Assembly (NCBI GenBank): GCA_028711705.1 | Contig: JAQTRS010000001.1 | Coordinates: 201,657-265,656, forward strand | DNA from: Candidatus Moraniibacteriota bacterium | Lineage (GTDB): Bacteria > Patescibacteriota > Minisyncoccia > Moranbacterales > UBA1568 | Reading direction: 5' to 3' | Length of the DNA stretch: 64,000 bases | Translations under genes and position numbers: made by a program | Notes under the pieces: model-generated | Told to the model about the DNA's origin: nothing | The model's input: only the letters and a program-made list of their open reading frames with translations | Databases searched by the model: none | Shown here: one piece after another, positions 1 to 64,000 of the stretch | Layout of the letters: each line of letters begins with the position of its first letter | Numbering within the stretch: position 1 is the stretch's first letter

Positions 1-109
1 TTCCATAGTACGATGTTTATGCGCTTTCAATAATGGGAAAAGTAGCGGATTTACGGCACGGATACCTGCGATACCCTCCGTGAAAACAGCGCGTATCCAG
101 CGCCGGCTA

Positions 110-1243
110 CTACGATTTCAGTGTAGCGTGCCGGCTGATATTAAGCAATATGCCCACACCCGACATCAAAAAGACCAGAGACGTTCCCCCGTAGCTGATG
201 AAAGGCAACGGTATGCCCGTCAGCGGGATGAGTCCGGAGATGGCCGCGATATTGATGAATGCCTGCGTCGTGATCCACATCACGATACCCACCGCCACTA
301 ATTTCCCGAAATCATCCGCGGCATGCTTGGCTATAAAAAACCCTCGCCATGCCAAAAAGACGAACAAGGAGAGGACGACCAGGGCGCCAATAAAACCCCA
401 TTCCTCACTGAAAATAGCGAAGATGGAATCGGTCACCGGTTCAGGGAGATAATTGAATTTCTGGCGGCTATGGCCCAATCCGAGGCCCCAAAAACCGCCC
501 GAACCGATGGCGAGCAGGGCCTGGCTCACATGATAGCCGACGCCTTGGGGATCAAGGTCTGGATTGAGGAATACCAGGAAGCGCTGTAACCGATAGGGAG
601 CGAGCTTGATCAGGATACCGAGCACCGCCATGCCTCCCACGAGCAGCATTCCCAAATGAGATAGGCGCGCGCCCGCTGCGAAAAAGATGGCCATGGAGAT
701 CAGAAAGATCACACCGAGCGTCCCGGTATCGGGCTGCTTGAGTATCAAAAAAGCGATAACACTGAAGATGGCCAGAAACGGCACCAATCCTTCGAACAGA
801 TCGCTCACCTTTTCCTTGCCCTTACCGACGAACCATGCAGCCAGATACAGGATCACCACAAGCTTCGTCATCTCGGACGGCTGGAACGACAATGGCCCTA
901 TCTGCACCCAACGGCTCGCGCCATATATCTTGCCGCCGATACCCGGTATGAACACAAGGATGAGCAAGATGACATTGAGCAAGAAAAGCGGCACCACCAC
1001 CTTCTGCCACCGATGATAATCCGCCCGTTGAAAAAAATACAGCGACAGCGCACCCGGAAGTATGCCGAAGAGCAGCTGGCGCTTGAAGAAGAAATAATCG
1101 TCGTTGAACCGCGTCTCCGCATAGAAGATGCCGGCGGACGCGATCGCGACCAAACCGATACCCAGCAGCGCGCATACCGCGAACAGGAGTTTCGAATCGA
1201 ATTGACTGGTATTGGTGGGTGTTTGTATTTTTTTTATAGCCAT
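110..1243 (-). CDS. SEDS-family peptidoglycan glycosyltransferase (FtsW/RodA/SpoVE type)
   Basis: Multi-TM protein with characteristic SEDS motifs (GSGGFWGLG, PFISYGGTS). The ORF-track N-terminus is trimmed to MAIKK (rc ATG at 1241-1243). Confidence 0.85.
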   Translation of the reverse strand: MAIKKIQTPTNTSQFDSKLLFAVCALLGIGLVAIASAGIFYAETRFNDDYFFFKRQLLFGILPGALSLYFFQRADYHRWQKVVVPLFLLNVILLILVFIPGIGGKIYGASRWVQIGPLSFQPSEMTKLVVILYLAAWFVGKGKEKVSDLFEGLVPFLAIFSVIAFLILKQPDTGTLGVIFLISMAIFFAAGARLSHLGMLLVGGMAVLGILIKLAPYRLQRFLVFLNPDLDPQGVGYHVSQALLAIGSGGFWGLGLGHSRQKFNYLPEPVTDSIFAIFSEEWGFIGALVVLSLFVFLAWRGFFIAKHAADDFGKLVAVGIVMWITTQAFINIAAISGLIPLTGIPLPFISYGGTSLVFLMSGVGILLNISRHATLKS

Positions 1244-1251
1244 AGTGTCTC

Positions 1252-1980
1252 TTATGCTTTTTTGGACGTATGCTTGCGCCACGTTTCGATATCCCTGTGA
1301 TGCCCGGAAAGCAACACCTCCGGAACGCGCCACCCGTTGAACTCTTCGGGTTTCGTATACTGCGGATGCTCCAATACCCCCTCATCGGTATGCGATTCAT
1401 ACACGGCGCTGTCGGTATTCCCCAACACTTCCGGCAAGAGCCTCGCCACCGCGTCCACCACCATCATCGCCGGAAGCTCCCCTCCCGTCAGCACGAAATC
1501 CCCGATGGAGAGCTCCTCATCCACCACATGCTCCGCCACCCGCTCATCCACGCCCTCATAGCGCCCGCACACGAAAATCAACCGGTCATATTTCGCCAAC
1601 CGCACGGCGTCCGCCTGCACGAACCGCTTCCCCTTCGCGGAAAACAAGATGGTTCTCGTCGTCTCGCTTGATTCCTGAGCACCCTCCGCTGTTTGTTGAT
1701 TGCTGTTTAAATCATCTGTGTTACTCGTTAACTGTTGATTGTTGGCTGTTGATTGTTTTACTGCCGTCACGGCCTTGAAAATCGGATTCACCTTAAGCAC
1801 CATGCCGGCCCCCCCGCCATAGGGCGTATCGTCCACCTTCTTATGCTTATCTTCGGTATAATCCCGCAGATTATGCACGACGATATCGATCAAACCTCTC
1901 TCTTTGGCGCGCTTCAAAATCGACTCATTACAATACGAGTCGCAGATATTGGGAAAAATGGTGATAATATCGAATTTCAT
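1252..1980 (-). CDS. trmD: tRNA (guanine37-N1)-methyltransferase TrmD, with an in-frame Q/N/S/T-rich low-complexity insertion
   Basis: [10 protein letters not shown] start, [12 protein letters not shown] and [10 protein letters not shown] motifs. The insertion is encoded by the TGTTGATTG-type tract at about 1690-1760. Confidence 0.9.
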
Positions 1981-2088
1981 ATGCCTTACTATACCACAAT
2001 AAGGCGAAATTTCAAATATTAAAAAGACTCCTCATACCAAAGGTACAAAGAGCCCAAGAGACCAAGTTCAAATACAAAATTCGAAGCG

Positions 2089-2700
2089 TCACACCGGTAT
2101 GCGAGAGAACACTCGGCTACCCGCATCCCACCGGCCACTCCCGCCAAACCACCAGTCATCGACGTCCCACCCACCGTTGCCGGCAAGCCAGTGTACGCTG
2201 ACAACCACGACTCCGTTGAGTACCTTAAGATGGAATATATTGGCGTTGCCATCATTGAGAAGCGCGCCCTCCTTGCCTCCCCATTGTTTCAACAGAAGCC
2301 AAACGATGAGCGCAAGGCCTTCGATCAGTCCAAATTCATAGTCTTTCGGAAGTTCACGACTGATTTCACTGTCCGACAAGGTATCCTTCATATCGAAATA
2401 GTATGCGGTTATCGAACCGATTTTTTCAACGATACCGGTAACGTATTTGAGAACGTTTTTTGTAAAACCCTCCCAAATCCAAAGTCCTTTTCGATCTTTG
2501 AAAAATTCAAAAAAATCAAGGTTTTGCTGCGGATCGGTCGTAACCGAACCAGCGTATCGGAGTTTTTCTGACTGCCATTTTTCGACAGCCTTTTTGCTCA
2601 CATCCTTACCGGTATTGATCGTATCCTGCAATGTTTTTACGGAAAGCTTACCCGTAAACAACAAATAGCTGAAATACAACCATAGTTTTAGTGTTTTCAT
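2089..2700 (-). CDS. secreted hypothetical protein (signal peptide); paralog of the partial ORF at 63461..64000
   Basis: N-terminal signal peptide. Strong GAGGAG RBS at 2705-2712. The C-terminal half aligns to the 63461..64000 protein (GLIEGLALIVWLL-KQW / GLVDGLACIAWLIYKQW). Confidence 0.55.
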   Translation of the reverse strand: MKTLKLWLYFSYLLFTGKLSVKTLQDTINTGKDVSKKAVEKWQSEKLRYAGSVTTDPQQNLDFFEFFKDRKGLWIWEGFTKNVLKYVTGIVEKIGSITAYYFDMKDTLSDSEISRELPKDYEFGLIEGLALIVWLLLKQWGGKEGALLNDGNANIFHLKVLNGVVVVSVHWLAGNGGWDVDDWWFGGSGRWDAGSRVFSRIPV

Positions 2701-2813
2701 GATGACTCTCCTCTACGTTTGAGTCGTTGGGAAAAATGGTGAAATACCACGATTTTTTAAGGATGTAGTCTCCTTGGTTATTTCCTATTTGATTATTAAG
2801 AAACTAACGGCGT

Positions 2814-2842
2814 AGTATACACCCTCTAGCGTATTTTGTCAA
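2814..2842 (-). promoter_or_regulatory. sigma-70 promoter for the 2089..2700 gene (TTGACA-17-TATACT, read on the minus strand)
   Basis: Consensus -35 at 2837-2842, 17-nt spacer, -10 TATACT at 2814-2819. Confidence 0.5.
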
Positions 2843-2921
2843 TGGTCTGTTAAAAATGCTCTATAAAAGCTAAAAATAACTATACATTAAACACTCGGCC
2901 CATTTTTAAAACAGTTGGCAT

Positions 2922-3779
2922 TCAATCCCGAATAATTCCCAATTCCTTAAACCACAATACGGCCTGAGCGACGGGCGCGAAGCTGATGCGATGGATCGGC
3001 GTCGGCCCATAGGTCTTCAGCGCTTCCATATGCACCTTCGTGCCATAGCCCTTGTGTTTCTTGAAGCCGTACTGGGGATACTTTGCATCGTATTCGTTCA
3101 TCATCCGATCACGCGTCACCTTGGCGATAATCGATGCGGCCGCGATGGTCTTGACGATCTTATCGCCGCTCACCACCGTCTCTTGCGGCAAGGAGATATT
3201 GGGAAGTTTCTGATTGCCATCGATCAAAAGCAAAACTTTGCCATTGTCAGGATGACGGTATTGTTGACCCGCCTGCAACGTTTCACGTAGCGATTCGGGC
3301 AGGCTGTTGATTGTTGACTGTTGACTGATGGATCGCCTCAGCGATCCCACCGCTTCCTTCATACCCAAAAACGTCGCCTGCAAGATATTGATCCGATCGA
3401 TAGTTTCGGGATAGATGATTCCCACGCCCACATGGAAGTGCTCCTGTATCAATGCAAACATCTCTTCGCGCTTCTTCTCCGAAATCGTTTTGGAGTCGCG
3501 GATGAATGCGAACTGCTTTTCCAATGCCTCCGGAATCAGGTAATCCTCCCGCTTATAGCACGCCGCCGCAGCCACCACCGGCCCCGCCAGCGGCCCCCGT
3601 CCCGCCTCATCCACGCCCAAAAAAAGCGTCGAGGGATACTTTCGCTTCAGAGCCTGCTCATAGGTAAAATCCGCAAGAGGTGTCGTCATAGGATACAGTA
3701 TAGCATAGCCATCGATTCCCATCCTAAGCAGGTCACCCTGCACGTGGAAGGCCGCATGCAAGAGAGTGTTTTGGCGCAC
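2922..3779 (-). CDS. rnhB: ribonuclease HII
   Basis: GVDEAGRGPLAGPVV catalytic motif and a DSK-containing C-terminal region. Has an in-frame SISQQSTINS insertion encoded by a TTGATTGTTGACTGTTGACTG tract at about 3300-3330. Confidence 0.85.
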   Translation of the reverse strand: MRQNTLLHAAFHVQGDLLRMGIDGYAILYPMTTPLADFTYEQALKRKYPSTLFLGVDEAGRGPLAGPVVAAAACYKREDYLIPEALEKQFAFIRDSKTISEKKREEMFALIQEHFHVGVGIIYPETIDRINILQATFLGMKEAVGSLRRSISQQSTINSLPESLRETLQAGQQYRHPDNGKVLLLIDGNQKLPNISLPQETVVSGDKIVKTIAAASIIAKVTRDRMMNEYDAKYPQYGFKKHKGYGTKVHMEALKTYGPTPIHRISFAPVAQAVLWFKELGIIRD

Positions 3780-4038
3780 GCACTAGCCGGAGTCGCCTTG
3801 TTTTTTTATTCCCTTGCCGCTATACTATAGACAGTAAGGTTGCATAAACTCCCCTGCAGAACCCATGGAGCGATCCGGGCTATGAGGGCAGATATCCTAT
3901 GTTTTCGGTTATTTCTTCCAACTTGGTTTTTACATTGGCCCTTAACCAACTTTTTCAAGGTGGTTTTTTTATGTATCAATCACTGCTACCCACCGATTGT
4001 TTACTGCTCATTGTTGACTGTTAATTGTTTTTTGTTAA

Positions 4039-7000
4039 TTGATTATGTCTTTCACCCATCTCCATGTTCACTCGCACTACAGCCTCCTCACCGCGCCCGC
4101 GAAAATAGAGGATATTTTGGCGCGCTGCAAAGAGCTCGGCATGACATCGGTCGCCCTCACCGACAACAGCAATATGTACGGCGCCGTCGATATCTATGTC
4201 AAAGCCAAAGACACCGGCATCAATGTCATCATCGGCGCTCAGGTCAATGTCTGCAAAGACCTCAATAGCAAGAACAATACCGCCGAAGACCGCCGCCGCT
4301 ACGATCTGGTTCTGCTCGCCAAGAATGAGACGGGCTACAAGAACCTGATGAAGATTATCTCGATCGCGCAGATCGAAGGCTTTTACTATAAGCCGCGCGT
4401 CGACAAGCAGCTCCTCCGGAAGTATCACGAAGGCCTCATCGCCCTCTCCGGATCGATTACCGGCGAAGTCCCCTCGCTCGTCATTATGGGCAACGACACC
4501 CGCGCCCGCGACATCGCCCTCGAATACCAAGACATCTTCGGCAAGGACCATTTTTACCTTGAGATCCAATCGCATCCGGATTACGAAAACCAGCTCCTCG
4601 CCAATGAGGGTCTGATCCAGATTTCCCGCGAGACCGGCATCCCTTTGGTCGCCGCCAACGATGTCCACTACGTCAACAAAGAAGACGCCGAAATCCAAGA
4701 CATCCTCTTGTGCATCCAAAATAACTGGAAAGTGAGCGACGTGAACCGCCTGAGCTTCACCCACCTCGATCTTTCCCTGCGTTCCCCCGAAGAGATGATC
4801 GCGGCCTTCAAAGATACTCCGGAGGCCATCACCAATACCCAGAAAATCGCGGACATGTGCCATGTCAAAATCAGGCTCGGCGAAACGCAGCTGCCGCATT
4901 TCGAAGTGCCGGCCAACTTCAACGCCGAATCCTACCTGCGGCACCTCTGCGAAGAGGGTTTGACCAAACGCTACGGCGAGGCTATCGAACCCAAGCACCG
5001 CGAACGCATGGAATACGAGCTTGGCATCATCGAAAAGACCGGCTTCGCATCCTACTTCCTTATCGTGCAGGACTTCGTCAACTGGGCCAAAAACGCCGGG
5101 GTCATGGTGGGCCCGGGCCGCGGATCGGCCGCCGGGAGCTTCGTCGCCTATCTTACGGGTATCACCAACATGGACCCGATCGAGTACACCCTCCTCTTCG
5201 AGCGATTCCTCAATCCGGAACGTATATCGATGCCCGATGTCGACATGGACTTCGCCGATGATCGCCGCGACGACGTGCTCAACTATGTCCGCGAAAAATA
5301 CGGCCACGATCATGTGGCGCAGATCATCACCTTCGGAACCATGGCCGCGCGCGCCGCTATCCGTGACACCGGCCGCGCCCTGGGATATTCCTATGCCCTC
5401 TGCGACCAGGTCGCCAAGCTCATCCCGATGTTTTCCACCATGAAAGAGGCCCTCGAAGAAGCGGTGGATTTCAAGAAGCTCTATGAATCCGACCCCGAAG
5501 CGCACAAACTCATCGATGTCGCCAAAAACCTCGAAGGTCTCGCCCGTCACGCCTCCATGCACGCCTGCGGCGTCGTGATCACCAAGGACCCCGTCACCGA
5601 ATACACCCCGATCCAAAAGATTTCCGGCTCGCGCGAGGGCATCGTGACCCAGTACGCCTCCTCCACCAAATTCAGCGCCGTGGAAAAGATCGGGCTCCTC
5701 AAGATGGACTTTCTGGGACTCAAAAACCTTACCATCATGCAAAACGCCATCCGCATCATCCGTGCGCTAGGCAAGCTTGACGAACTCATCGAAAGAATCG
5801 GTCTCGATCCGCAAACGGCGTCCATATCGGATATCATGGATCGCCTCCCTATCGATGACGAGAAGACCTATGAGCTCCTCCAAAAAGCGCACACCACCGG
5901 CGTCTTCCAGCTGGAAAGCAATGGTATGAAACGCTATCTGCGCCAACTCAAACCGACCGTCCTCGAAGACATCATCGCCATGGTCGCCCTCTATCGCCCG
6001 GGACCGATGGATTGGATTCCGGATTTCATCGATGGCAAACACGGACGCAAGACCGTCAAATACCTCCACCCGAAACTCGAGCCGATTCTCAGTGCCACCT
6101 ATGGCGTGGCCGTCTATCAGGAACAGGTCATGCAGATCGCCCGGGATCTTGCCGGCTTCACACTCGGCGAAGCTGACGTGCTCCGCAAGGCTATGGGAAA
6201 AAAGATTCTCGAGCTCATTCAGGAGCAGCGCGTCAAATTCGTGGCGCGCTGCGGCGAGCAAGGCATCAGCAAAGAGATCGCCGAGGGTGTCTTCGCCTTC
6301 ATCGAGCCGTTCGCCGGCTACGGATTCAACCGATCCCATGCGGCGTGCTATGCGCTCATCGGCTACCAGACCGCGTACCTGAAGGCGCACTACCCGGCAT
6401 CCTTCATGGCCGCCCTCCTCACCTCCGACCAGGACACGACCGACCGTATCGCCATCGAGGTCAATGAGTGCCGCGAAATGGGTATCGAAGTTTTGCCACC
6501 GGACGTCAACGAAAGTTTCGAGGAATTCGCCGTGGTACCGGATGATGCGGGCACCGAACGCATCCGCTTCGGACTCAATGCTATCAAGAACGTGGGCAAG
6601 GTCGCCGCCGAAGAAATCGTCAAAGAACGCAAACGCGGTGGAAAGTTCCGCTCCATCGCCGATTTCGTCGAACGTGTCCAAACCAAAGACCTCAACAAAA
6701 AATCTCTCGAAGCCCTGTCCAAAGTGGGCGCCCTCGATGCCTTCGGCGAACGCACCCAGATTCTCGCCAGCATCGACAAGATCCTCAAGCACTCCCGCAA
6801 TCTGCAGAAGATCAAAGAAACGCACACCGACAGCCTCTTCGGCCACATGCCTATCGAAACTTCCGAATTGCGCCTCGAAACCGTCCCGCCTATCGACAAG
6901 AAACAAAAGCTCAAATGGGAAAAGGAGCTCCTCGGCCTCTATGTCAGCGATCACCCTGTCAGTGATTTCAAAGAATACTTCGAACAGATCACGGTCCCGA

Positions 7001-24897: not shown

Positions 24898-25815
24898 ATG
24901 TCGTTGCGCGGTATTATTAAGACCGCTCCTATGGCTACACGAAAAATAGTTCCGCACCTGTGGTTCGATACGGAGGCAAAAGAGGCTGCCGCGTTCTATA
25001 CGTCGCTTTTCGAGGATTCGAGAATCGAAAACATCACGACGATCACAGACACGCCCTCCGGAAATTGCGATATCGTCAGTTTCAAGCTTTCCGGACAAGA
25101 TTTCATGGCGATAAGCGCCGGGCCGGTTTTCAAACTCAATCCGTCCATATCGCTGTTCGTCGTCTTCGATACCGAGGCGGACATCGAAGCGGCCTGGAAC
25201 AAGCTTATCGACGGCGGAAAGGCCCTGATGGCCTATGACACCTATCCTTGGGCGAAAAAATACGGATGGCTGCAGGATAGATACGGACTCTCATGGCAGC
25301 TTTCCTGGAGCGATTATCATAAGATGAAGCAGAAAATCACCCCCTCGCTCATGTTCACGGGAGCTGTGGCCGGGAAAGCGAAGGAGGCGATCGATATGTA
25401 TACGGGCATTTTTCCCGATTCGAACATAGAGGTGACGGTGCCGTATGAGGAGAGTGATGACGACACGCCCGGATTTATCAAACACTCCCGATTCACGCTC
25501 AACAGACAGGGATTCATAGCGATGGACAGCTCCCTGCAGCACGGATTCGGTTTCAACGAAGCGCTATCGCTCATGGTAAACTGCGATACCCAAGAAGAGA
25601 TCGACTACTATTGGGAAAAATTATCGGCGGTTCCCGAAGCGGAGCAATGCGGTTGGCTCAAGGATGCCTATGGCGTGTCATGGCAGATCGTTCCATCAAG
25701 CATGAATGAAATGATGCACAGCGGCGACGCGGAAAAAACCGTACGGGTAACGCAGGCATTCCTGAAGATGAAAAAATTCGACATAGCGAAACTGGAAGAG
25801 GCCGCTCGAGGCTAG
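24898..25815 (+). CDS. VOC/glyoxalase-superfamily protein with two tandem PhnB-like (3-demethylubiquinone-9 3-methyltransferase-type, PF06983-like) domains
   Basis: KIVPHLWFDTEAKEAAAFYTSLF and a second repeat KITPSLMFTGAVAGKAKEAIDMYTGIF. Confidence 0.65.
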   Translation: MSLRGIIKTAPMATRKIVPHLWFDTEAKEAAAFYTSLFEDSRIENITTITDTPSGNCDIVSFKLSGQDFMAISAGPVFKLNPSISLFVVFDTEADIEAAWNKLIDGGKALMAYDTYPWAKKYGWLQDRYGLSWQLSWSDYHKMKQKITPSLMFTGAVAGKAKEAIDMYTGIFPDSNIEVTVPYEESDDDTPGFIKHSRFTLNRQGFIAMDSSLQHGFGFNEALSLMVNCDTQEEIDYYWEKLSAVPEAEQCGWLKDAYGVSWQIVPSSMNEMMHSGDAEKTVRVTQAFLKMKKFDIAKLEEAARG

Positions 25816-27563: not shown

Positions 27564-29771
27564 ATGTCACACGCGCCGTCTTCGTCCCGCACCGTTTCAT
27601 CCAAAGTCCTGACCATCAAATCCCTCATCAAACGCGATGGCCGAAAAGTTCCGTTCAAAGGCAATAAAATCGCAAGCGCCGTCAGCAAGGCTTTCGAAGC
27701 GACCGATGAGGGATCGCCCAAGGACGCGCAGCGTGTCGCCAAAAAAGTCATCGCCTTGCTTGAAAAGCAAGCCCGCGCGATATTCAAGACGACGCATAAA
27801 AGATACATACCCGCCATCGAAGACGTCCAAGACTATGTCGAGAAAGTCCTCATGATACTTGACTTCGAAGAAACCGCCAAAGCCTATATCCTCTATCGGG
27901 AACAGAGGCGTCAGGCGCGCGAGGCCGAAACCGCGCTCGATCACGCCGTCTCGCTCGTCGATAACTACCTTGGCAATCTCGATTGGAAGGTCAAAGAGAA
28001 CGCCAATATGGCCTACTCTCTCCAGGGTCTCAATAACTACATTTCCTCCGCTATCAGCTCTAAGTACTGGATGCATCGCATCTACCCTGCCGATATCCGT
28101 GAGGCGCATGAATCCGGCGACCTCCACATCCACGACCTGCAACTCGTCGCCGCCTATTGCTGCGGCTGGGATCTGCAAGACCTCATCCGCCGCGGCTTCA
28201 CGGGCGTTCCCGGCAAAGTCGCCTGCAAACCCGCCAAGCACTTCGGCGCCATCTTGGGGCAGATGGTCAATTTCATTTATACCCTCCAGGGCGAAGTGGC
28301 CGGCGCCCAGGCCTTCTCCAGCTTCGACACCTTGCTCGCGCCCTTCATCCGCTACGACAAACTTACCTACTCCCAAGTCAAACAGGAAATCCAGTCCTTC
28401 GTCTTCAATATGAACGTCTCAACGCGCGTCGGCTTCCAAACCCCCTTCTCCAATATCACCATGGATATCAATCCACCCGCCATGCTCGCAAAAGAGCATG
28501 TGATTCGCGGCGGCGAAGTCCAGAAAGAAACCTATGCCGACTTCCCTAAGGAAATGGCGATGATCAACCGCGCTTTCGCCGAAGTCATGACCGAGGGCGA
28601 TGCGACAGGACGCATCTTCACCTTCCCCATCCCGACCTACAATATCACCAAAGATTTCGACTGGGACGATAAGAGTTTCGATCCGGTCTGGGAAATGACC
28701 GTCAAATACGGCATTCCCTACTTCGCCAATTTCGTGAATTCCGACATGCATCCTGATGACGCGCGCAGCATGTGCTGCCGCCTGCGCCTCGACAATCGGG
28801 AACTGCGCAAGCGCGGCGGCGGACTCTTCGGCGCCAATCCTCTCACCGGATCCATCGGCGTCGTCACCATCAATCTCCCGCGCCTGGGTTATCTTGCCAA
28901 AAACGAGCAGGACTTCTTCGTAAGACTCGACCATCAGATGGATCTTGCCAAAACCAGCCTCGAAATGAAGCGCACCATCGTCGAGCGGCTCACGGACAAA
29001 GGCCTCTATCCCTACACCAAATTCTATCTCTCCGCCATCAAGGAACGTTTCGGCACCTATTGGAAGAATCATTTCGGCACCATCGGACTGGTCGGCACCA
29101 ACGAGGCCATCCAAAACCTCTTGGGCGCCGAAACGACCATTACCACCGCCCAAGGCCAGGCCTTCGCCCAAAAAATCCTCAAACACATGCGCAAACGCCT
29201 CGAGGGCTACCAAAAAGAAACCAACAACCTCTATAACCTCGAGGCCACACCCGCGGAAGGCACCGCCTATCGCCTCGCCCTCCTCGACAAAAAATTCCAC
29301 CCGGACATCTTGGTTGCCAACGAGGCTTCCGTCCACAAGGATAACACCGCCCCCTACTACACCAATTCCTCACATATCCCCGTTGGACACACCGCAGACA
29401 TCTTCGAGGCGCTCGATTTGCAGGATACTCTCCAGACCCTCTATACGGGCGGCACGGTCCTGCACGGATTCCTCGGCGAGCGTATCAATAACATCGAGAC
29501 CGCCAAGAAATTGGTCAGATTGATCACGGAACGTTACAGTCTCCCCTATTTCACCCTCACCCCGACCTTCAGCATCTGCGCCGAGCATGGCTACCTGACC
29601 GGTGAGCAACCCAACTGCCCGCACTGCGAGCGTCCCGCCGAAGTCTATTCCCGCGTCGTCGGCTACATCCGCCCCGTCGAGCAGTGGAATAACGGCAAGC
29701 ACGCCGAATTCGAAGATCGAAAAGAATACGTTTCGGAAGTTTCTTTGATGAACGCGGAAGCTTCTGCATGA
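27564..29771 (+). CDS. nrdD: anaerobic ribonucleoside-triphosphate reductase (class III RNR) with an N-terminal ATP-cone
   Basis: ATP-cone (VLTIKSLIKRDGRKVPF), catalytic core, C-terminal CPHC zinc site and RVVGY glycyl-radical motif. Confidence 0.92.
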   Translation: MSHAPSSSRTVSSKVLTIKSLIKRDGRKVPFKGNKIASAVSKAFEATDEGSPKDAQRVAKKVIALLEKQARAIFKTTHKRYIPAIEDVQDYVEKVLMILDFEETAKAYILYREQRRQAREAETALDHAVSLVDNYLGNLDWKVKENANMAYSLQGLNNYISSAISSKYWMHRIYPADIREAHESGDLHIHDLQLVAAYCCGWDLQDLIRRGFTGVPGKVACKPAKHFGAILGQMVNFIYTLQGEVAGAQAFSSFDTLLAPFIRYDKLTYSQVKQEIQSFVFNMNVSTRVGFQTPFSNITMDINPPAMLAKEHVIRGGEVQKETYADFPKEMAMINRAFAEVMTEGDATGRIFTFPIPTYNITKDFDWDDKSFDPVWEMTVKYGIPYFANFVNSDMHPDDARSMCCRLRLDNRELRKRGGGLFGANPLTGSIGVVTINLPRLGYLAKNEQDFFVRLDHQMDLAKTSLEMKRTIVERLTDKGLYPYTKFYLSAIKERFGTYWKNHFGTIGLVGTNEAIQNLLGAETTITTAQGQAFAQKILKHMRKRLEGYQKETNNLYNLEATPAEGTAYRLALLDKKFHPDILVANEASVHKDNTAPYYTNSSHIPVGHTADIFEALDLQDTLQTLYTGGTVLHGFLGERINNIETAKKLVRLITERYSLPYFTLTPTFSICAEHGYLTGEQPNCPHCERPAEVYSRVVGYIRPVEQWNNGKHAEFEDRKEYVSEVSLMNAEASA

Positions 29772-30393: not shown

Positions 30394-31101
30394 ATGCGTA
30401 TCGCAGGCTTCGAACCGCTCACCCTCATCGATTATCCCGACATTCTCGCCACCGTCGTGTTTACCCCTGGCTGCGCGCTTCGCTGCCCCTACTGCCATAA
30501 CCCGGAACTCATAAGCACCGTCCCGGGAAGCCGCTCGGAGTTTTTCACCGTCAATCGCGAGGATGAATTTTTCGCCTTTCTTGAAAAACGGAGAGGGTTG
30601 CTCGACGGTGTCGTCATCACGGGCGGCGAACCCACTCTCCATCCCAATCTCCTTGATTTCATCCGCCGCGTCAAAGCCATGGGCTTTCTTGTCAAACTCG
30701 ATACCAATGGCATTTTTCCTGACAAAGTGACGGAGATACTCGCCACCGGCCTTGTGGATCACTGGGCCATGGACATCAAGCACAGCCCGAAAAAATATCC
30801 CCTCGCCTCCGGCGTCCCTATCCCTATCGAACGCTTCCAGCAGTCCGCCAGACTGTTGATGAAAAGCGGCGCTTCCTATGAATTCCGTACCACCGTCGTC
30901 CCGGGCATCCACGAACCCGAGGACTTCATCGCTATCGGCAAGTGGATCGCCGGGGCGACCAACTACTACCTCCAGGCCTTTCGATCGATAAAAATCGCCG
31001 ACGAGAGCCTCCGAAATCGGATCAAAGGGAAAACCATCGACCTTAAGGTCATCCGCAACTCCCTGCTTCCCTACCTCCCGTCGGTCGGCATCCGGGAATA
31101 A
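30394..31101 (+). CDS. nrdG: anaerobic ribonucleoside-triphosphate reductase activating protein (radical SAM)
   Basis: CALRCPYCHN CxxxCxxC cluster motif and GGEP glycine-rich SAM motif. Confidence 0.88.
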   Translation: MRIAGFEPLTLIDYPDILATVVFTPGCALRCPYCHNPELISTVPGSRSEFFTVNREDEFFAFLEKRRGLLDGVVITGGEPTLHPNLLDFIRRVKAMGFLVKLDTNGIFPDKVTEILATGLVDHWAMDIKHSPKKYPLASGVPIPIERFQQSARLLMKSGASYEFRTTVVPGIHEPEDFIAIGKWIAGATNYYLQAFRSIKIADESLRNRIKGKTIDLKVIRNSLLPYLPSVGIRE

Positions 31102-32120: not shown

Positions 32121-33030
32121 ACGTTTCCATATAATGATTATGTGTCGCGATGCCGTCCTTATCGACAAACACGGCCGGTATGTTCAAGATTTCAGACATG
32201 GCCATCCCTTTCTTCTTTCCGGCGATGAACAATGTTTTAGCGAACACATCCGCTTTTGTCGCATGGGGAGCGATAACCGTCACCGACAACAGATCCGAAG
32301 CCGCACTCTCCCGTGTCGATGGATCGATGATATGATGCCTTTCCCGCCCCTGATGCGTCCAATGCCGGCGATTCCTGCCCGACGTCGCCACAGCCGCATC
32401 CCTCAGGAGCAAGAGCGCCACGGATTCATCCGCCCTTTGCGGATGCTCGATATCGATCGCCCAGTACGGATACCCTTCTTTCGCATTCACTCCCCGCACC
32501 GCTATATCCCCGCCCGCATCGACCATGAAGTTTTCAAAATGCTCACTCAGGAATCGCACCGCCTTATCGATAGCGAATCCTTTTCCTATACCGCCAAGAT
32601 CGATCATCAGGCCCTTGGGCTTCGTCACCGTCCGCGTCGCAGCATCCAGCATGACCTGCGAAAAATCATCCTTCGTTTCCGTCACATAGCCTCCATACGC
32701 ACCCGTATATCCGGACGCCTCCATGACAGGCAATATGCTCGGATCAAACAACCCTCCCGTTCTCTCATAATACCCTTTCGATCGGCGAAGCATATCAAAC
32801 AGTTCTTCCGACACCGCGATCGACTCGCTCATATTCATCTGCCAGAGCTCATTATCCGCGACAAATCGGCTGTATCGCTGCCCGAAATCACGAAACATCC
32901 CGAAGACTTCTTCCAAACAGATCAGGGCTCGCGTATCGTCGGCATCCGTATGCACGATCTCGCACACAATGTCCGTTTTCATAATCGTCCCGAATGCCTC
33001 CTTGCGAACGCTTCTCCACTCCATAATCAT
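32104..33030 (-). CDS. apbE: FAD:protein FMN transferase (flavin transferase ApbE family)
   Basis: MIDLGGIGKGFAIDKAV and DAGGDIAV motifs. No obvious signal peptide. Confidence 0.85.
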   Translation of the reverse strand: MIMEWRSVRKEAFGTIMKTDIVCEIVHTDADDTRALICLEEVFGMFRDFGQRYSRFVADNELWQMNMSESIAVSEELFDMLRRSKGYYERTGGLFDPSILPVMEASGYTGAYGGYVTETKDDFSQVMLDAATRTVTKPKGLMIDLGGIGKGFAIDKAVRFLSEHFENFMVDAGGDIAVRGVNAKEGYPYWAIDIEHPQRADESVALLLLRDAAVATSGRNRRHWTHQGRERHHIIDPSTRESAASDLLSVTVIAPHATKADVFAKTLFIAGKKKGMAMSEILNIPAVFVDKDGIATHNHYMETYVWKP

Positions 33031-33506
33031 TCTTCGTATGAATCAAGGATACCGTTACCGTTCTTATCCGTTTCCGCGTCGTCGAAATACGCGAAATCGT
33101 CCTCATCATGATGGGCATCGAACACATTCGGAACCCCGTCCCCGTCGATATCCGTAAAATACTCACTCTGCTTTACGAGCGGATTCGGATCGATGGCGTC
33201 CACAAGCAGATCCTCGTCCGAATCCTTTCGATACTCCTCATCGGTTACGATAACCGTTTTTGTGACCGGCTTATACTCGGTAACGCTCTGGATAATCTGC
33301 TGGGTTTCAGCGGCCACCGAGGAGCTCGCTGCATCATCAGCCTCTTCCCTGTCCTCATCCTCCTCATCTTCCTCATCATCCTCTGCGGACACGACGGAAA
33401 AAATGGAATTTCTATGCTGTGCGGACTTCGACACGACATCTCCGGACACGGTTCCGAGCAGCATGACAAACAAAAGTGTCGTAACGGTTTGTAGGGAAGA
33501 TTTCAT
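33027..33506 (-). CDS. secreted highly acidic protein with DxDGDG calcium-binding motifs
   Basis: Signal peptide. EDDEEDEEDEDREE run. DIDGDGVPN and DKNGNGILD motifs. Confidence 0.5.
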   Translation of the reverse strand: MKSSLQTVTTLLFVMLLGTVSGDVVSKSAQHRNSIFSVVSAEDDEEDEEDEDREEADDAASSSVAAETQQIIQSVTEYKPVTKTVIVTDEEYRKDSDEDLLVDAIDPNPLVKQSEYFTDIDGDGVPNVFDAHHDEDDFAYFDDAETDKNGNGILDSYEE

Positions 33507-43094: not shown

Positions 43095-43278
43095 AAAATA
43101 GACACTTAACGGTTATACAGTAAAATCTGCTTTCTGAAAGCAAAAAAGAAACAAACTGACACGAAGGGCTTCATTCGTTTCCTACTACAACACAGGATAA
43201 CACTTCCTTTCGTTTTTGACAAATCCCCCACCCGTATCTTTGCCCCCAAGAACCGCGCTTCCGAAAGGGACTTTGTGC

Positions 43279-43287
43279 TGGTATAAT
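43279..43287 (+). promoter_or_regulatory. extended -10 promoter TGGTATAAT, 8 nt upstream of the AOX start codon (leaderless-type transcript)
   Basis: TATAAT at 43282-43287 and ATG at 43296. No SD. Confidence 0.5.
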
Positions 43288-43295
43288 GGAAAGAT

Positions 43296-43931
43296 ATGAC
43301 CCCTTCGCATACCGATTCACCCGAAAGCACTCTCCTCCACTACGAACCGCAGTGTTTTTCCGACTGGGTCGCTTTCGTGCTCGTGCGCGTTTCCCGCCTT
43401 ATCGCCGATGCCTTCTTCGCCAAGCGCTACGGGCCAAGGGCGGTCGTCCTCGAAACGATCGCCGCCGTCCCCGGAGCCGTCGGATCGCTATTCCTTCACC
43501 TCAAAAGCCTTCGCCGCATCCAAGACGACCAGGGATTCATCCGTCAATTGCAAGAAGAGGCGGAAAACGAGCGCATGCACCTCATGGCCTATGTCCTCTT
43601 GGCCAAACCCTCCTTTTTCGAAAGGCTGCTCATCATCATCGCGCAGGGGATATTCTGCCTCGGCTATACCCTCATCTACTTCATCTCACCCAAGACAGGC
43701 CATCGCACCGTGGGATACCTGGAGGAAGAGGCCGTCAAAAGCTATACCTCCTTTCTGGATGAGATCCGATCCGAAAGGCATCCCAATCCCCCGGCACCGG
43801 CATTCGCTATCAGCTACTGGAAGCTTGCGCCCGAGGCCCGTCTCTATGACATGGTTGTCGCCACACGGGCGGATGAGATACGCCATCGGAACGCCAATCA
43901 TGATCTCGCTCATGCCATAACCACCTTATAA
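43296..43931 (+). CDS. aox: alternative oxidase / plastoquinol terminal oxidase family di-iron quinol oxidase
   Basis: LETIAAVPG, NERMHLMAY, GYLEEEAVKSY and RADEIRHRNANHDLA, the four iron-binding E(xxH) motifs typical of AOX/PTOX. Confidence 0.8.
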   Translation: MTPSHTDSPESTLLHYEPQCFSDWVAFVLVRVSRLIADAFFAKRYGPRAVVLETIAAVPGAVGSLFLHLKSLRRIQDDQGFIRQLQEEAENERMHLMAYVLLAKPSFFERLLIIIAQGIFCLGYTLIYFISPKTGHRTVGYLEEEAVKSYTSFLDEIRSERHPNPPAPAFAISYWKLAPEARLYDMVVATRADEIRHRNANHDLAHAITTL

Positions 43932-43938
43932 ACTTCCT

Positions 43939-44433
43939 ATGAAAAAACTCCTCAACACGCTTCTGACCGATCATTCATTGCGCTCATGGGTCGTTTTCCT
44001 CGGCTGCGTCTTGCTCTTAGGAACAGGCTATTTCCTCCAATACAGGGTCGGCCTCATCCCCTGCCCGCTGTGCATCCTCCAAAGATTCTTTTTCGCGCTC
44101 GTCGGGATAACGGCGCTCGCCATAGCCATACGCAAACCCTCTGCGCAGGAACTCACCCTCCTTAGCTATGCCATGCTCGCATGTTCATTTTTCGGCGGCG
44201 CCTTGGCAGCAAGGCAGATATGGCTCCAACATAATCCTCCAAGTCTGCTAGGTGCCAGCTGCGTGCCGGGACTTGCATCCATCACCAACCTCATCGCATC
44301 GATTTTCAAAGCCACGGCCGATTGCGCCGAAAAAGGATGGACGCTTTTGAGCCTTTCCATCCCCGAATGGTCCCTTATCGCTTTCGTCGTACTCGCAGTG
44401 ATAAGCACCATTCCTCTCTGGAAGAAAGACTAA
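43939..44433 (+). CDS. dsbB: disulfide bond formation protein B
   Basis: 4-TM protein with a CPLC first cysteine pair and a second periplasmic Cys pair (C...C about 25 aa apart). Starts 8 nt after the aox stop. Confidence 0.75.
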   Translation: MKKLLNTLLTDHSLRSWVVFLGCVLLLGTGYFLQYRVGLIPCPLCILQRFFFALVGITALAIAIRKPSAQELTLLSYAMLACSFFGGALAARQIWLQHNPPSLLGASCVPGLASITNLIASIFKATADCAEKGWTLLSLSIPEWSLIAFVVLAVISTIPLWKKD

Positions 44434-52436: not shown

Positions 52437-52799
52437 CTACCGGCTATGAAACCAAAAACTCGCGCTGCCCCCGACCCCGCCACGGCCTCCGCCATAATAA
52501 TACGGTATTCCGCCATAGCCACGATAGCCACCGCCGATACCATAATTATACGTTCTATAGCAATCCAATCCCCTCATGAAAGCAGGACCATCGCTACAGC
52601 CGTACCGATAATTATTATAATAGCTGCCTGAGTATCGCTGCCTAGAGCTTTGCGTATAATAGCTGCTATTTGGGTATTGCTGCCCAGAGCTTTGCTCATA
52701 ATAAACGTCCCCATACGAGTAACACCCGACCAGAAACGTTATACTGACCAATATCAGCAACCGATACCCCTTCTTTCTCAAATTGAACCTTCTGTTCAT
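52437..52799 (-). CDS. Tyr/Gly-rich small lipoprotein
   Basis: Start trimmed to MNRRF. FLVGC lipobox. YYGGGRGG-type low-complexity sequence. Confidence 0.5.
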   Translation of the reverse strand: MNRRFNLRKKGYRLLILVSITFLVGCYSYGDVYYEQSSGQQYPNSSYYTQSSRQRYSGSYYNNYRYGCSDGPAFMRGLDCYRTYNYGIGGGYRGYGGIPYYYGGGRGGVGGSASFWFHSR

Positions 52800-52919
52800 G
52801 ACACTACCCTCCTCAGAGCCTGTATGATTGTGAAATAACCCGCCCAAGACACGGCAAGGGCGATGGTATAGTATATATGAAGAAATGGTTCCTGTCAAGG
52901 CTATCTCAAAATAATCCCT

Positions 52920-57744: not shown

Positions 57745-58407
57745 CTACTGGACGATACGATACGAAGACTTCGGACTCTTGCCTCCCGTCTTCAGATCGA
57801 CTGCGTACCAGCTGTATGATCCGGGCGCTTTATTCGCCTTGTAATTCAGTGAGAAAGTTCCCTGTTTATTCGTCCGGACAATGACCGGCGCATAGTATCC
57901 GCCATCACTCTTGGAAAAATACAAGGCGACGGACCTGTTCTTCGCGAAATACTTGCCGCTCTGCACCAAAGTATCGCCTCGCTTCACAATCTTGGAAGAA
58001 ACCTTGATCGTCTTTGTATGATCGACTTTCTTTTTCTGAGCATCCCGTTTGACTGGCAATGCTGCTGCCTGAGCCGGCTGTTCTGCTACGGGTACCACGT
58101 TAACTACAGGTGCGGCCGGTACGACAGAAACCTCAGAGGTAACTGGTGTTTCTGGAATAGCCGGCGTTTCAGGGATAACCGGGATTTCGGGAACGACAGG
58201 GGTTTCGGGAATAACCGGGTCTACAGACTCATTTTCATCTTCATCTTCATCCTCGTCATCATTCGTATCATTCTCGGTATCGTGATATCCATAGCCGTAA
58301 CCATAACCGTAGCCATACGCTATCCCGATGAAACTCTGCCCTGCCAGGCCCAACACCATCACAACGATCACCAGCGACGCAAAAACCCTGTTCTTCTCAT
58401 TCTTCAT
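57745..58407 (-). CDS. secreted repeat protein (YGYGYGYGY, acidic DEDEDEDE run, PETP repeats, C-terminal beta domain)
   Basis: Signal/anchor helix. Low-complexity repeats are visible in the DNA at 58140-58330. Confidence 0.5.
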   Translation of the reverse strand: MKNEKNRVFASLVIVVMVLGLAGQSFIGIAYGYGYGYGYGYHDTENDTNDDEDEDEDENESVDPVIPETPVVPEIPVIPETPAIPETPVTSEVSVVPAAPVVNVVPVAEQPAQAAALPVKRDAQKKKVDHTKTIKVSSKIVKRGDTLVQSGKYFAKNRSVALYFSKSDGGYYAPVIVRTNKQGTFSLNYKANKAPGSYSWYAVDLKTGGKSPKSSYRIVQ

Positions 58408-58511
58408 GAAGTATCTATTACACATTATCCCTAAGCGAAAGCAAAATCCGCTTAACGATAGACACTAGCACAAAAAAATGATTCCGTCAATGTGGTTGAA
58501 AAAATTTGGCT

Positions 58512-63460: not shown

Positions 63461-64000
63461 CTATGGCTCTTGGCACTGCTTCGCACCGCAGATGAATACC
63501 CGGAAACCGGAAAATTCCGGGACCTTGGCATCGGGTTCCCAGCTGTCGATGCCCCAGCCATCATACCCTCCGAGCCGATGCACGCCTATGACACGGATCG
63601 TACCGAACACATCCAGATAAAAAACGTTGAACGCATCCGTATTGACGCGCAGCGCCCCCGATTCTTCACCCTGCCATTGTTTATAGATGAGCCACGCGAT
63701 GCAAGCCAATCCATCAACAAGACCGAGGGCATAACCATGGGGAAACTTCGCCCGAATTTCCCGATCCCATAAATTTTCACGTAAATCGAAATAATCGACG
63801 ACTATCCGATCGCTTCGGAACGAGCTACCGTTGATATAACGGAGCACGCTGTTCACGAAACCCTCGAAACTATGCAACCCCCGTTTCGATGTGAAAAAAC
63901 CGACCAGATCCATATTATTCTGCGGACCGAGATCGATCGAATCCACATACAAAAACTCCGTTGAAACATGCTGGTACGTCTTCGGCACACCCCTCGACAC
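63461..64000 (-). CDS. hypothetical secreted-family protein, paralog of 2089..2700 (5' end lies beyond the window edge)
   Basis: The ORF continues past 64000. Aligns over roughly 70 aa with the 2089..2700 product. Confidence 0.5.
   Translation of the reverse strand: MSRGVPKTYQHVSTEFLYVDSIDLGPQNNMDLVGFFTSKRGLHSFEGFVNSVLRYINGSSFRSDRIVVDYFDLRENLWDREIRAKFPHGYALGLVDGLACIAWLIYKQWQGEESGALRVNTDAFNVFYLDVFGTIRVIGVHRLGGYDGWGIDSWEPDAKVPEFSGFRVFICGAKQCQEP

Follow-up and report, generated by a model that had tools for sequence, protein, structure and literature searches.

An alternative oxidase linked and fused to DsbB in Candidate Phyla Radiation bacteria: a possible short route from protein thiols to oxygen

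In a 64-kb stretch of DNA (called the window in the following, at its full length), which is part of a 323,247-bp contig of a bacterium of the Parcubacteria group within the Candidate Phyla Radiation (CPR, or Patescibacteria), namely of Candidatus Moraniibacteriota, a gene encoding an alternative oxidase (AOX) is immediately followed by dsbB. The pairing of these two genes goes far beyond chance: DsbB is the direct neighbour or the fusion partner of AOX in 12 out of 12 CPR-type loci, but in none of 80 non-CPR loci. The operon-like layout, this linkage and the natural fusions of the two proteins suggest that the terminal quinol oxidase working behind DsbB is AOX, and with a probability of roughly 60% we consider that the two would provide a short electron-disposal route for disulfide formation outside the cytoplasm.

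In the scheme we propose, a thioredoxin-fold oxidase encoded outside the window would accept electrons from the Cys pairs of exported proteins and pass them on to the two Cys pairs of DsbB, which in turn would reduce membrane quinone; AOX, attached to this membrane from the cytoplasmic side, would re-oxidise the quinol at its di-iron centre and reduce O2 to water without pumping protons. Disulfide formation, and not the removal of O2, would be the function under selection. AOX would in this manner supply the terminal oxidase required by DsbB in a group which as a rule is devoid of heme-copper and bd oxidases; of the single-cell genomes of Patescibacteria, 0.6% contain such enzymes (PMC7507113), and the Patescibacteria of groundwater have next to no respiratory machinery (PMC8672522). 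As background at the level of the phylum, this is favourable yet indirect. The module would have been assembled inside Parcubacteria-type CPR from foreign genes, a proteobacterial-type AOX and a DsbB of either the proteobacterial or the BdbC type, and would have been fused to a single polypeptide in one lineage. Because CPR bacteria, to our knowledge, generally make neither lipids nor quinones, the quinone would probably be scavenged.

The AOX protein matches Pfam family PF01786 with 239.3 bits (cut-off 22.7) over profile positions 9-215 of 216, and its residues 10-205 match the trypanosome AOX structures 3vv9 and 9kun with 134 bits. The motifs LET (E53), NERMHL (E92, H95), LEEEA (E143) and RADEIRH (E194, H197) are all present, as is the catalytic Tyr150; the iron ligands align to the trypanosome AOX motifs, and all six of them together with Y150 are conserved without exception when ten relatives are aligned. 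The four-helix-bundle fold of AOX is seen in the model of a fused homolog (P0018, discussed below), whose AOX is 60% identical to that of the window. An earlier reading of this DNA, made from its letters and open reading frames only (the sequence-only reading), had called this gene an AOX with four di-iron motifs, and with all ligands in place and a profile score far above the cut-off this assignment stands. AOX lacks a signal peptide and is predicted to be a membrane-associated di-iron quinol:O2 oxidoreductase on the cytoplasmic face. Its closest non-CPR relatives are found in Alpha- and Betaproteobacteria (52-62% identity), in agreement with an AOX phylogeny in which the single CPR match was attributed to transfer from Proteobacteria (PMC9540462).

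DsbB reaches 113.8 bits against Pfam PF02600 (cut-off 22.1; profile positions 6-146 of 148) and matches the structures of E. coli DsbB with E-values of 7e-9 to 1e-7, in an alignment that spans the CxxC-xxx-R motif as well as the C-terminal Cys. It carries C42-P-L-C45, the quinone-site R49 and a second Cys pair, C108/C129, so that the earlier identification of the downstream gene as DsbB with a CPLC motif and a further Cys pair could be confirmed. All scores against the NCBIfam equivalogs are below the cut-offs (PRK04388, 81 versus 168 bits; PRK02110, 78 versus 138; PRK01749, 61 versus 157), and the protein should therefore be regarded as a divergent DsbB and not as an equivalog-level member; its nearest non-CPR relatives are DsbB proteins of Pseudomonas with 40-48% identity. 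Four hydrophobic stretches and Lys/Arg-rich termini can be recognised, and judged by the positive-inside rule and by E. coli DsbB, the protein would be a thiol:quinone oxidoreductase with four transmembrane helices and both termini in the cytoplasm.

The spacer between the two genes (Table 1) is too short to leave room for a promoter or a terminator; the sequence-only reading had correctly placed dsbB as the next gene downstream, but had given the gap as 8 nucleotides (nt) instead of 7. A terminator scan revealed no terminator-like site between or inside AOX and dsbB, and no convincing terminator was found after dsbB either (scan negative, fold z-score -1.5). With this operon-like spacing, the best explanation would be that both genes form one transcription unit. 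Upstream, 8 nt separate the -10 hexamer of the extended -10 element TGGTATAAT from the ATG of AOX. In the syntenic loci of two relatives (L093 and L097), TGATATACT and TGGTATACT occupy the identical position with the same 8-nt spacing; TGnTATAnT is kept there though the AOX proteins are just 71-75% identical, and the 8 bases between -10 and ATG vary and contain no Shine-Dalgarno sequence. The -10 element is present in a third relative (L100) as well. A generic two-hexamer scan made no call and no -35 match was found upstream of TGGTATAAT; the absence of a -35 match is usual for extended -10 promoters. The AOX-dsbB transcript is likely leaderless or near-leaderless, as had been suggested at the outset from the distance between the extended -10 and the start codon, a suggestion which the conservation in relatives supports.

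The pair is flanked by a divergent rpmF-nusB-rnc operon and a convergent glyA, and a second conserved intergenic block resembles a promoter, putatively that of the divergent operon. Both AOX and DsbB are 100% identical to NCBI proteins from a metagenome-assembled genome of Candidatus Moranbacteria. GC content and GC content at third codon positions (GC3) of AOX and dsbB equal those of their neighbours, which are housekeeping genes, and the remainder of the window likewise consists of housekeeping genes, as judged by reading the translations by eye. Neighbour-like GC3 and the housekeeping setting on a contig of 323 kb imply that the pair is neither mis-binned nor recent. A recent horizontal insertion was considered and rejected on the grounds of this composition and of synteny of the locus in four relatives.

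Table 1 Features of the AOX-dsbB locus and of NDH-2 (type II NADH dehydrogenase) in related loci; positions are those of the window unless a locus is named
Feature	Position	Strand	Details
Extended -10 element TGGTATAAT	43279-43287	+	TG 43279-43280, TATAAT 43282-43287; from the sequence read and conservation
AOX	43296-43931	+	211 residues; Pfam PF01786 match, di-iron ligands, similarity to trypanosome AOX
AOX di-iron codons	43452-43886	+	E53 43452, E92 43569, H95 43578, E143 43722, Y150 43743, E194 43875, H197 43884
AOX-dsbB spacer ACTTCCT	43932-43938	+	7 nt, between TAA 43929-43931 and the ATG of DsbB
DsbB (type 1, proteobacterial-like)	43939-44433	+	164 residues; Pfam PF02600, Cys pairs, similarity to E. 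coli DsbB
DsbB redox/quinone codons	44062-44325	+	C42 44062, C45 44071, R49 44083, C108 44260, C129 44323
Putative rpmF-nusB-rnc promoter, conserved block	43194-43222	-	TTGTCA, 17 nt, TATCCT, preceded by TG; kept in L093, L097, L100
NDH-2	L071 2890-4161; L099 1718-2950; L134 1054-2280; L096 5442-5618		directly after AOX

For the analysis of linkage, every close AOX relative with enough DNA was included, which gave the 12 CPR-type loci. The background comprised 79 non-CPR AOX loci from species-representative genomes, nearly all of them from Alpha-, Beta- and Gammaproteobacteria plus two from Anaerolineae, and one further locus, L098, adding up to 80; around the 79 loci, neighbours were checked within ~6 kb, with queries including the type-2 DsbB described below, B. 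subtilis BdbC and the thioredoxin-like (Trx-like) protein of CPR. In the CPR-type loci, AOX and DsbB are found together in at least five genomic contexts and in both gene orders. None of the 79 non-CPR loci contains a DsbB of either type or a Trx-like gene within ~6 kb. L071 (Candidatus Lloydbacteria) was the only CPR locus of the species-representative sample, and there the full cluster is present. L093 and L097 show AOX followed by DsbB in a syntenic locus, and in L092 the pair is situated downstream of dnaA-dnaN-dciA with a 4-nt overlap. In L094, L095, L096, L099, L134 and L071, by reversal of the order, DsbB precedes AOX, and the junctions lie between an overlap of 14 nt and a gap of 41 nt. 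Six further pairs are implied by close relatives of AOX and DsbB that apparently share contigs. In a neighbour-joining tree (calculated without support values), the linked AOX proteins fall into one clade, separate from the proteobacterial ones.

The AOX of L098 (P0026), from a flagellated non-CPR bacterium, falls with the CPR clade in the same tree, and no DsbB is found nearby; it lies at 473-1132 of this locus (GCA_031403835.1, JANNGK010000244.1) among the flagellar genes FliS, FliT and PilZ. The P0026 lineage may have been the donor of CPR AOX.

Adjacency of this kind could in principle result from coincidence or hitch-hiking, the two genes having been co-transferred from a donor, or having become neighbours by chance, without any functional relation. 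Both genes do look foreign, with the identities to Alpha-/Betaproteobacteria and to Pseudomonas mentioned above, and a transfer from Proteobacteria has been put forward for CPR AOX (PMC9540462). However, with no DsbB neighbour in any of the 79 sampled loci there is no donor arrangement which could have been inherited, the composition is fully ameliorated, and the two genes have stayed linked across at least five contexts, whichever of them comes first, with either of two unrelated types of DsbB and in fused form as well. Coincidence is close to refuted by the fusions, and we find it scarcely credible.

Two natural fusions were identified. P0018, a protein of 368 residues with AOX followed by DsbB in a single chain, is encoded identically on 17 contigs of up to 244 kb, and P0017, an AOX-DsbB fusion of 369 residues, on at least four contigs. 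The two have diverged from each other and lie in two different neighbourhoods, both with the domain order corresponding to the gene order of the window; their linkers are similar in length, and they may go back to one or two fusion events. The AlphaFold model of P0018 (based on a 68-sequence alignment) has a mean predicted local distance difference test score (pLDDT) of 87 and a predicted template modelling score (pTM) of 0.76. In this model, residue 208 is the end of the last helix of AOX and the first transmembrane helix of DsbB starts at 215, leaving ~6 residues between them; the helices of the DsbB half comprise residues 215-238, 246-268, 272-301 and 345-367. The AOX half superposes on 3vv9 with a root-mean-square deviation of 2.5 Å over 209 columns (probability 1.00), and the DsbB half has a TM-score of 0.75 to E. 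coli DsbB 2zuq, with the ubiquinone complex 6wvf matched too; in the structure search with P0018, no solved structure was found which covers both halves. E. coli DsbB has its N-terminus in the cytoplasm, and AOX is monotopic and located on the matrix face, the equivalent of the cytoplasmic one. With a cytoplasmic DsbB N-terminus, an AOX on the matrix-equivalent side and a tether as short as that of the model, the fusion would be topologically coherent, and quinone may shuttle back and forth between two sites within the fused chain. The named relatives of the QueA protein encoded beside the P0018 fusion are exclusively from Moranbacteria, Moraniibacteriota and Patescibacteria, including one from the contig of the window, and P0018 thus belongs to the same CPR lineage.

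Other chains containing AOX were encountered in the search of representative proteins. P0372 (363 residues) was examined as a candidate for the reverse DsbB-AOX fusion and rejected as a tandem AOX-AOX protein; it consists of two partial AOX domains which are almost the same, and may reflect a real duplication or an assembly artefact. In P0385 (584 residues), an N-terminal AOX is fused to an NADH:flavin oxidoreductase of the Old-Yellow-Enzyme type (Oxidored_FMN, 249 bits), which makes it another natural fusion of AOX to a potential electron donor. On a Moranbacteria-type contig with an AOX-DsbB fusion, an alpha-2-macroglobulin-type protein of 1724 residues is encoded at L001/L002 1-790, where it runs off the locus; it contains Hint/intein-like domains (PT-HINT, Vint), and its presence is unusual in an organism without an outer membrane.

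The loci with reversed gene order carry another DsbB (type 2), which is BdbC-like (NCBIfam PRK03113, 110 bits), shares ~30% identity with the DsbB of the window across ~70 residues and contains the motifs PAC(V/I)LCWxQR and CPxVxGLPSC. That one AOX clade is combined with two DsbB families would be expected if the catalytic function shared by both is what matters to AOX. In L071, L094, L095, L096 and L099, the cluster is headed by the Trx-like gene, which encodes a protein of 145-162 residues. This protein is anchored in the membrane at its N-terminus, continues through a Ser/Thr/Pro-rich linker into a thioredoxin domain with the motif WCPHC (WCSHC in one of them), and reaches the Pfam Thioredoxin threshold. 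CPHC is the active-site motif of DsbA; with Trx-like protein, DsbB and AOX side by side, these loci would thus encode the whole relay from the substrate oxidase to O2. The NDH-2 found in type-2 loci matches that of Caldalkalibacillus (4nwz) with 165 bits, and B. subtilis YjlD and S. aureus NDH-2 were matched too. From the gene content, the organisms with this NDH-2 probably possess a minimal non-pumping chain from NADH via NDH-2, quinone and AOX to O2, into which DsbB would feed.

The Lloydbacteria-type clusters of Trx-like protein, DsbB, AOX and NDH-2 constitute a redox island in a group thought to be without electron transport. Between AOX and the next gene, a small conserved protein of 70-83 residues is encoded in L094 (2334-2585), L096 (5214-5441) and L099 (1498-1710). 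Its N-terminus is signal-like, it contains a His/Asp-rich stretch (HGEVDDGH) and a single transmembrane helix at the C-terminus, and it belongs to no Pfam family and may bind metal.

Several observations weigh against a route in which AOX serves disulfide formation via DsbB. Fusions are rare and form one cluster at 50% identity in an exhaustive search of 1.84 billion representatives. Since the linked loci are mutually related, 12 out of 12 is too high as a count of independent events; the number of arrangements, i.e. at least five contexts, two gene orders and one or two fusions, is unaffected by this kinship. L100 (JGI Ga0172379_10022527, 1-4400), from a close relative, shares both the locus and the -10 element with the window, but its DsbB stands there without AOX and begins 28 nt after the -10; compared with the window, its NusB is 94% and its serine hydroxymethyltransferase (SHMT) 88% identical, but its DsbB just 65%. 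AOX would accordingly be an accessory at this locus, with DsbB able to do without it, and may have been lost in L100 or gained in the lineage of the window. Furthermore, NDH-2 follows AOX in four of the six type-2 loci (at full length in L071, L099 and L134 and, as a partial gene, in L096), so that AOX need not serve DsbB alone. A quinone-related gene was not found in the window, and neither was a DsbA or Trx-like partner, for which tblastn with the Trx-like proteins of CPR gave only E-values above 0.3; Pfam searches on ten unassigned open reading frames of the window yielded no such partner, and a scan for CxxC located CPHC motifs in the window solely within DnaX and NrdD, where they are zinc sites. 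Nor did a query with E. coli DsbA match anything among the metagenome loci.

With no DsbA partner in the window, it might be asked whether the DsbB-like protein functions in a non-canonical manner, either in the reverse direction, with quinol reducing a target, or as a subunit which anchors AOX in the membrane or delivers quinone to it. The scores below the equivalog cut-offs would fit such a role, and window-type DsbB evolves faster than its neighbours (48-65% versus 84-95% identity). All four essential Cys residues and the quinone-site Arg are nevertheless conserved, the sister clusters do include a DsbA-type WCPHC protein, and the occurrence of two DsbB families in the same slot argues for shared catalysis and not for a structural role. 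A non-canonical DsbB therefore seems very unlikely to us.

More weight should be given to the view that AOX is mainly a general quinol sink or O2 scavenger, which would remove O2 and/or regenerate NAD+ (via NDH-2, quinone and AOX) and shield the O2-sensitive enzymes of a fermentative cell, DsbB being a co-located user of the quinone pool. It can draw on the NDH-2 genes directly after AOX and on L100, where DsbB stands without AOX, and also on the presence in the window of NrdD, the O2-sensitive class III anaerobic ribonucleotide reductase (27564-29771, + strand; Pfam NRDD, 657 bits, and ATP-cone), and of its radical-SAM activase NrdG (30394-31101, + strand); a cytochrome o oxidase of Parcubacteria has likewise been read as a means of O2 scavenging (PMC5220378). 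DsbB, on the other hand, is the invariable partner (12/12) and the one that came to be fused with AOX, whereas NDH-2 occurs only in some members of a single subclade, never as a fusion, and was not found in the window. Moreover, the WCPHC Trx-like gene heads the same clusters, and the O2 affinity of AOX is comparatively low, which would make it a poor scavenger. As the principal role of AOX, a general sink appears rather unlikely, and it does not exclude disulfide formation, as both functions are compatible. That an O2-sensitive NrdD shares a genome with an O2-reducing AOX is in any case worth recording, as it bears on the question of oxygen protection.

Returning to AOX as the oxidase behind DsbB, the proposal of the sequence-only reading that AOX represents a quinol-to-O2 sink for DsbB is well supported by the fusions, by the linkage maintained through rearrangement, by the WCPHC neighbour and by the absence of non-CPR pairs (0/80). 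Its description of the module as dedicated and self-contained claims too much, considering NDH-2 in the type-2 loci, L100 without AOX and the lack of a DsbA in the window. A stronger version, in which AOX and DsbB would form a self-sufficient, non-energy-conserving 'oxidative folding battery', with a tiny host-scavenged quinone pool and as the sole use of quinone and of O2 as acceptor, is conceivable, but we would advance it only tentatively and at less than even odds.

With regard to possible substrates, several exported proteins of the window contain Cys residues beyond the membrane anchor: an M23-like peptidase and a D,D-carboxypeptidase with four each, and two unassigned exported proteins with two each. 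All Cys counts in the exported, Cys-containing proteins are even, in what is a small sample, and from their sequences these four proteins are candidate disulfide substrates. Three predicted exported proteins of low complexity are encoded at 57745-58425, 52437-52898 and 33027-33506 (all on the - strand), the first with a GYGYGY run, an Asp/Glu run and PE(T/I)PV repeats, the second rich in Tyr, Gly and Ser and the third rich in Asp and Glu; as they have no Cys beyond the anchor, they are no DsbB substrates. A protein encoded at 24898-25815 (+ strand) contains two copies of PF06983 ('3-demethylubiquinone-9 3-methyltransferase', 243 bits), but has a glyoxalase fold and despite the family name does not represent a quinone biosynthesis gene. 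At opposite ends of the window, 2089-2700 and 63461-64000 (both - strand) encode paralogues with 38% identity over 169 residues (E-value 1e-36), the former without a Pfam match.

The proposed route can be compared with several known systems. In E. coli, the DsbA-DsbB-ubiquinone-cytochrome bo/bd pathway drives oxidative folding via the respiratory chain. The CPR pair resembles it in having a DsbB whose two Cys pairs and quinone-site Arg would connect a thioredoxin-fold oxidase to quinone, and a terminal quinol oxidase, which would connect quinol to O2. It differs in that the terminal oxidase is a non-heme di-iron AOX instead of a heme enzyme, in that AOX is in an operon or fused with DsbB whereas the oxidases of E. 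coli are unlinked and part of a full respiratory chain, and in that the window is without a nearby DsbA gene and the host phylum generally without respiration. AOX is known from Proteobacteria such as Novosphingobium and Vibrio, and these enzymes are of the same family and the same length as CPR AOX, with the same iron ligands and 52-62% identity; they are branches of complete respiratory chains, though, and without a DsbB neighbour in the sampled non-CPR loci, whereas CPR AOX forms its own clade. The BdbC/BdbD proteins of Bacillus subtilis represent a monoderm DsbB system which employs menaquinone and a full chain, without an AOX beside bdbC. The sister-subclade DsbB is similar to it in being BdbC-like and in having a membrane-anchored thioredoxin-fold partner, as expected without an outer membrane, but in the CPR clusters AOX adjoins DsbB. 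VKOR-thioredoxin fusions of cyanobacteria and actinobacteria combine consecutive members of a disulfide relay in one membrane protein, as would AOX-DsbB, and the Trx-like protein of CPR (WCPHC...YVEC...YPTW) resembles their Trx-like domain by eye; in VKOR fusions, however, the upstream thioredoxin partner is joined, while the CPR fusion joins the downstream quinol oxidase. Finally, a cytochrome o ubiquinol oxidase is present in some Parcubacteria (PMC5220378, PMC12577380). Like AOX, this quinol oxidase stands alone, comes from Proteobacteria and is found in CPR genomes otherwise without an electron-transport chain, but it is a heme-copper enzyme, has been read as an O2 scavenger and has no named donor, whereas for AOX the linkage and fusion indicate DsbB as the donor.

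A full-text literature search retrieved no paper linking AOX to DsbB functionally and none pairing DsbB with CPR terms. New are AOX as the terminal oxidase, its tight coupling or fusion to DsbB and the occurrence in CPR, the pathway itself being of the known DsbB-quinone-terminal-oxidase type. It should also be noted that the survey of oxygen reductases in Patescibacteria covered heme-copper and bd enzymes only (PMC7507113), and that AOX would thus have been missed entirely.

CPR bacteria account for much of the diversity of bacteria and are seen as fermentative organisms without electron-transport chains, and their lone quinol oxidases have so far been dismissed as O2 scavengers without a defined donor. 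The AOX-DsbB unit would name a concrete donor as well as a purpose, namely O2-driven disulfide formation in exported proteins, and, as a quinone-based route leading from protein thiols to O2, would be smaller than any other known to us. The natural fusion would in addition be a candidate for a compact tool for respiration-independent disulfide formation in engineered cells. Questions that now become testable concern the presence and source of quinone in these bacteria, the O2 dependence of the surface structures by which they attach to their hosts, and the effect of AOX inhibitors on CPR growth. If the stronger version, the 'oxidative folding battery', were true, it would account for the repeated discovery of isolated quinol oxidases in CPR genomes without an electron-transport chain: they would serve the folding of proteins outside the cytoplasm, such as pili, cell-wall enzymes and host-attachment proteins, and not respiration or oxygen defence.

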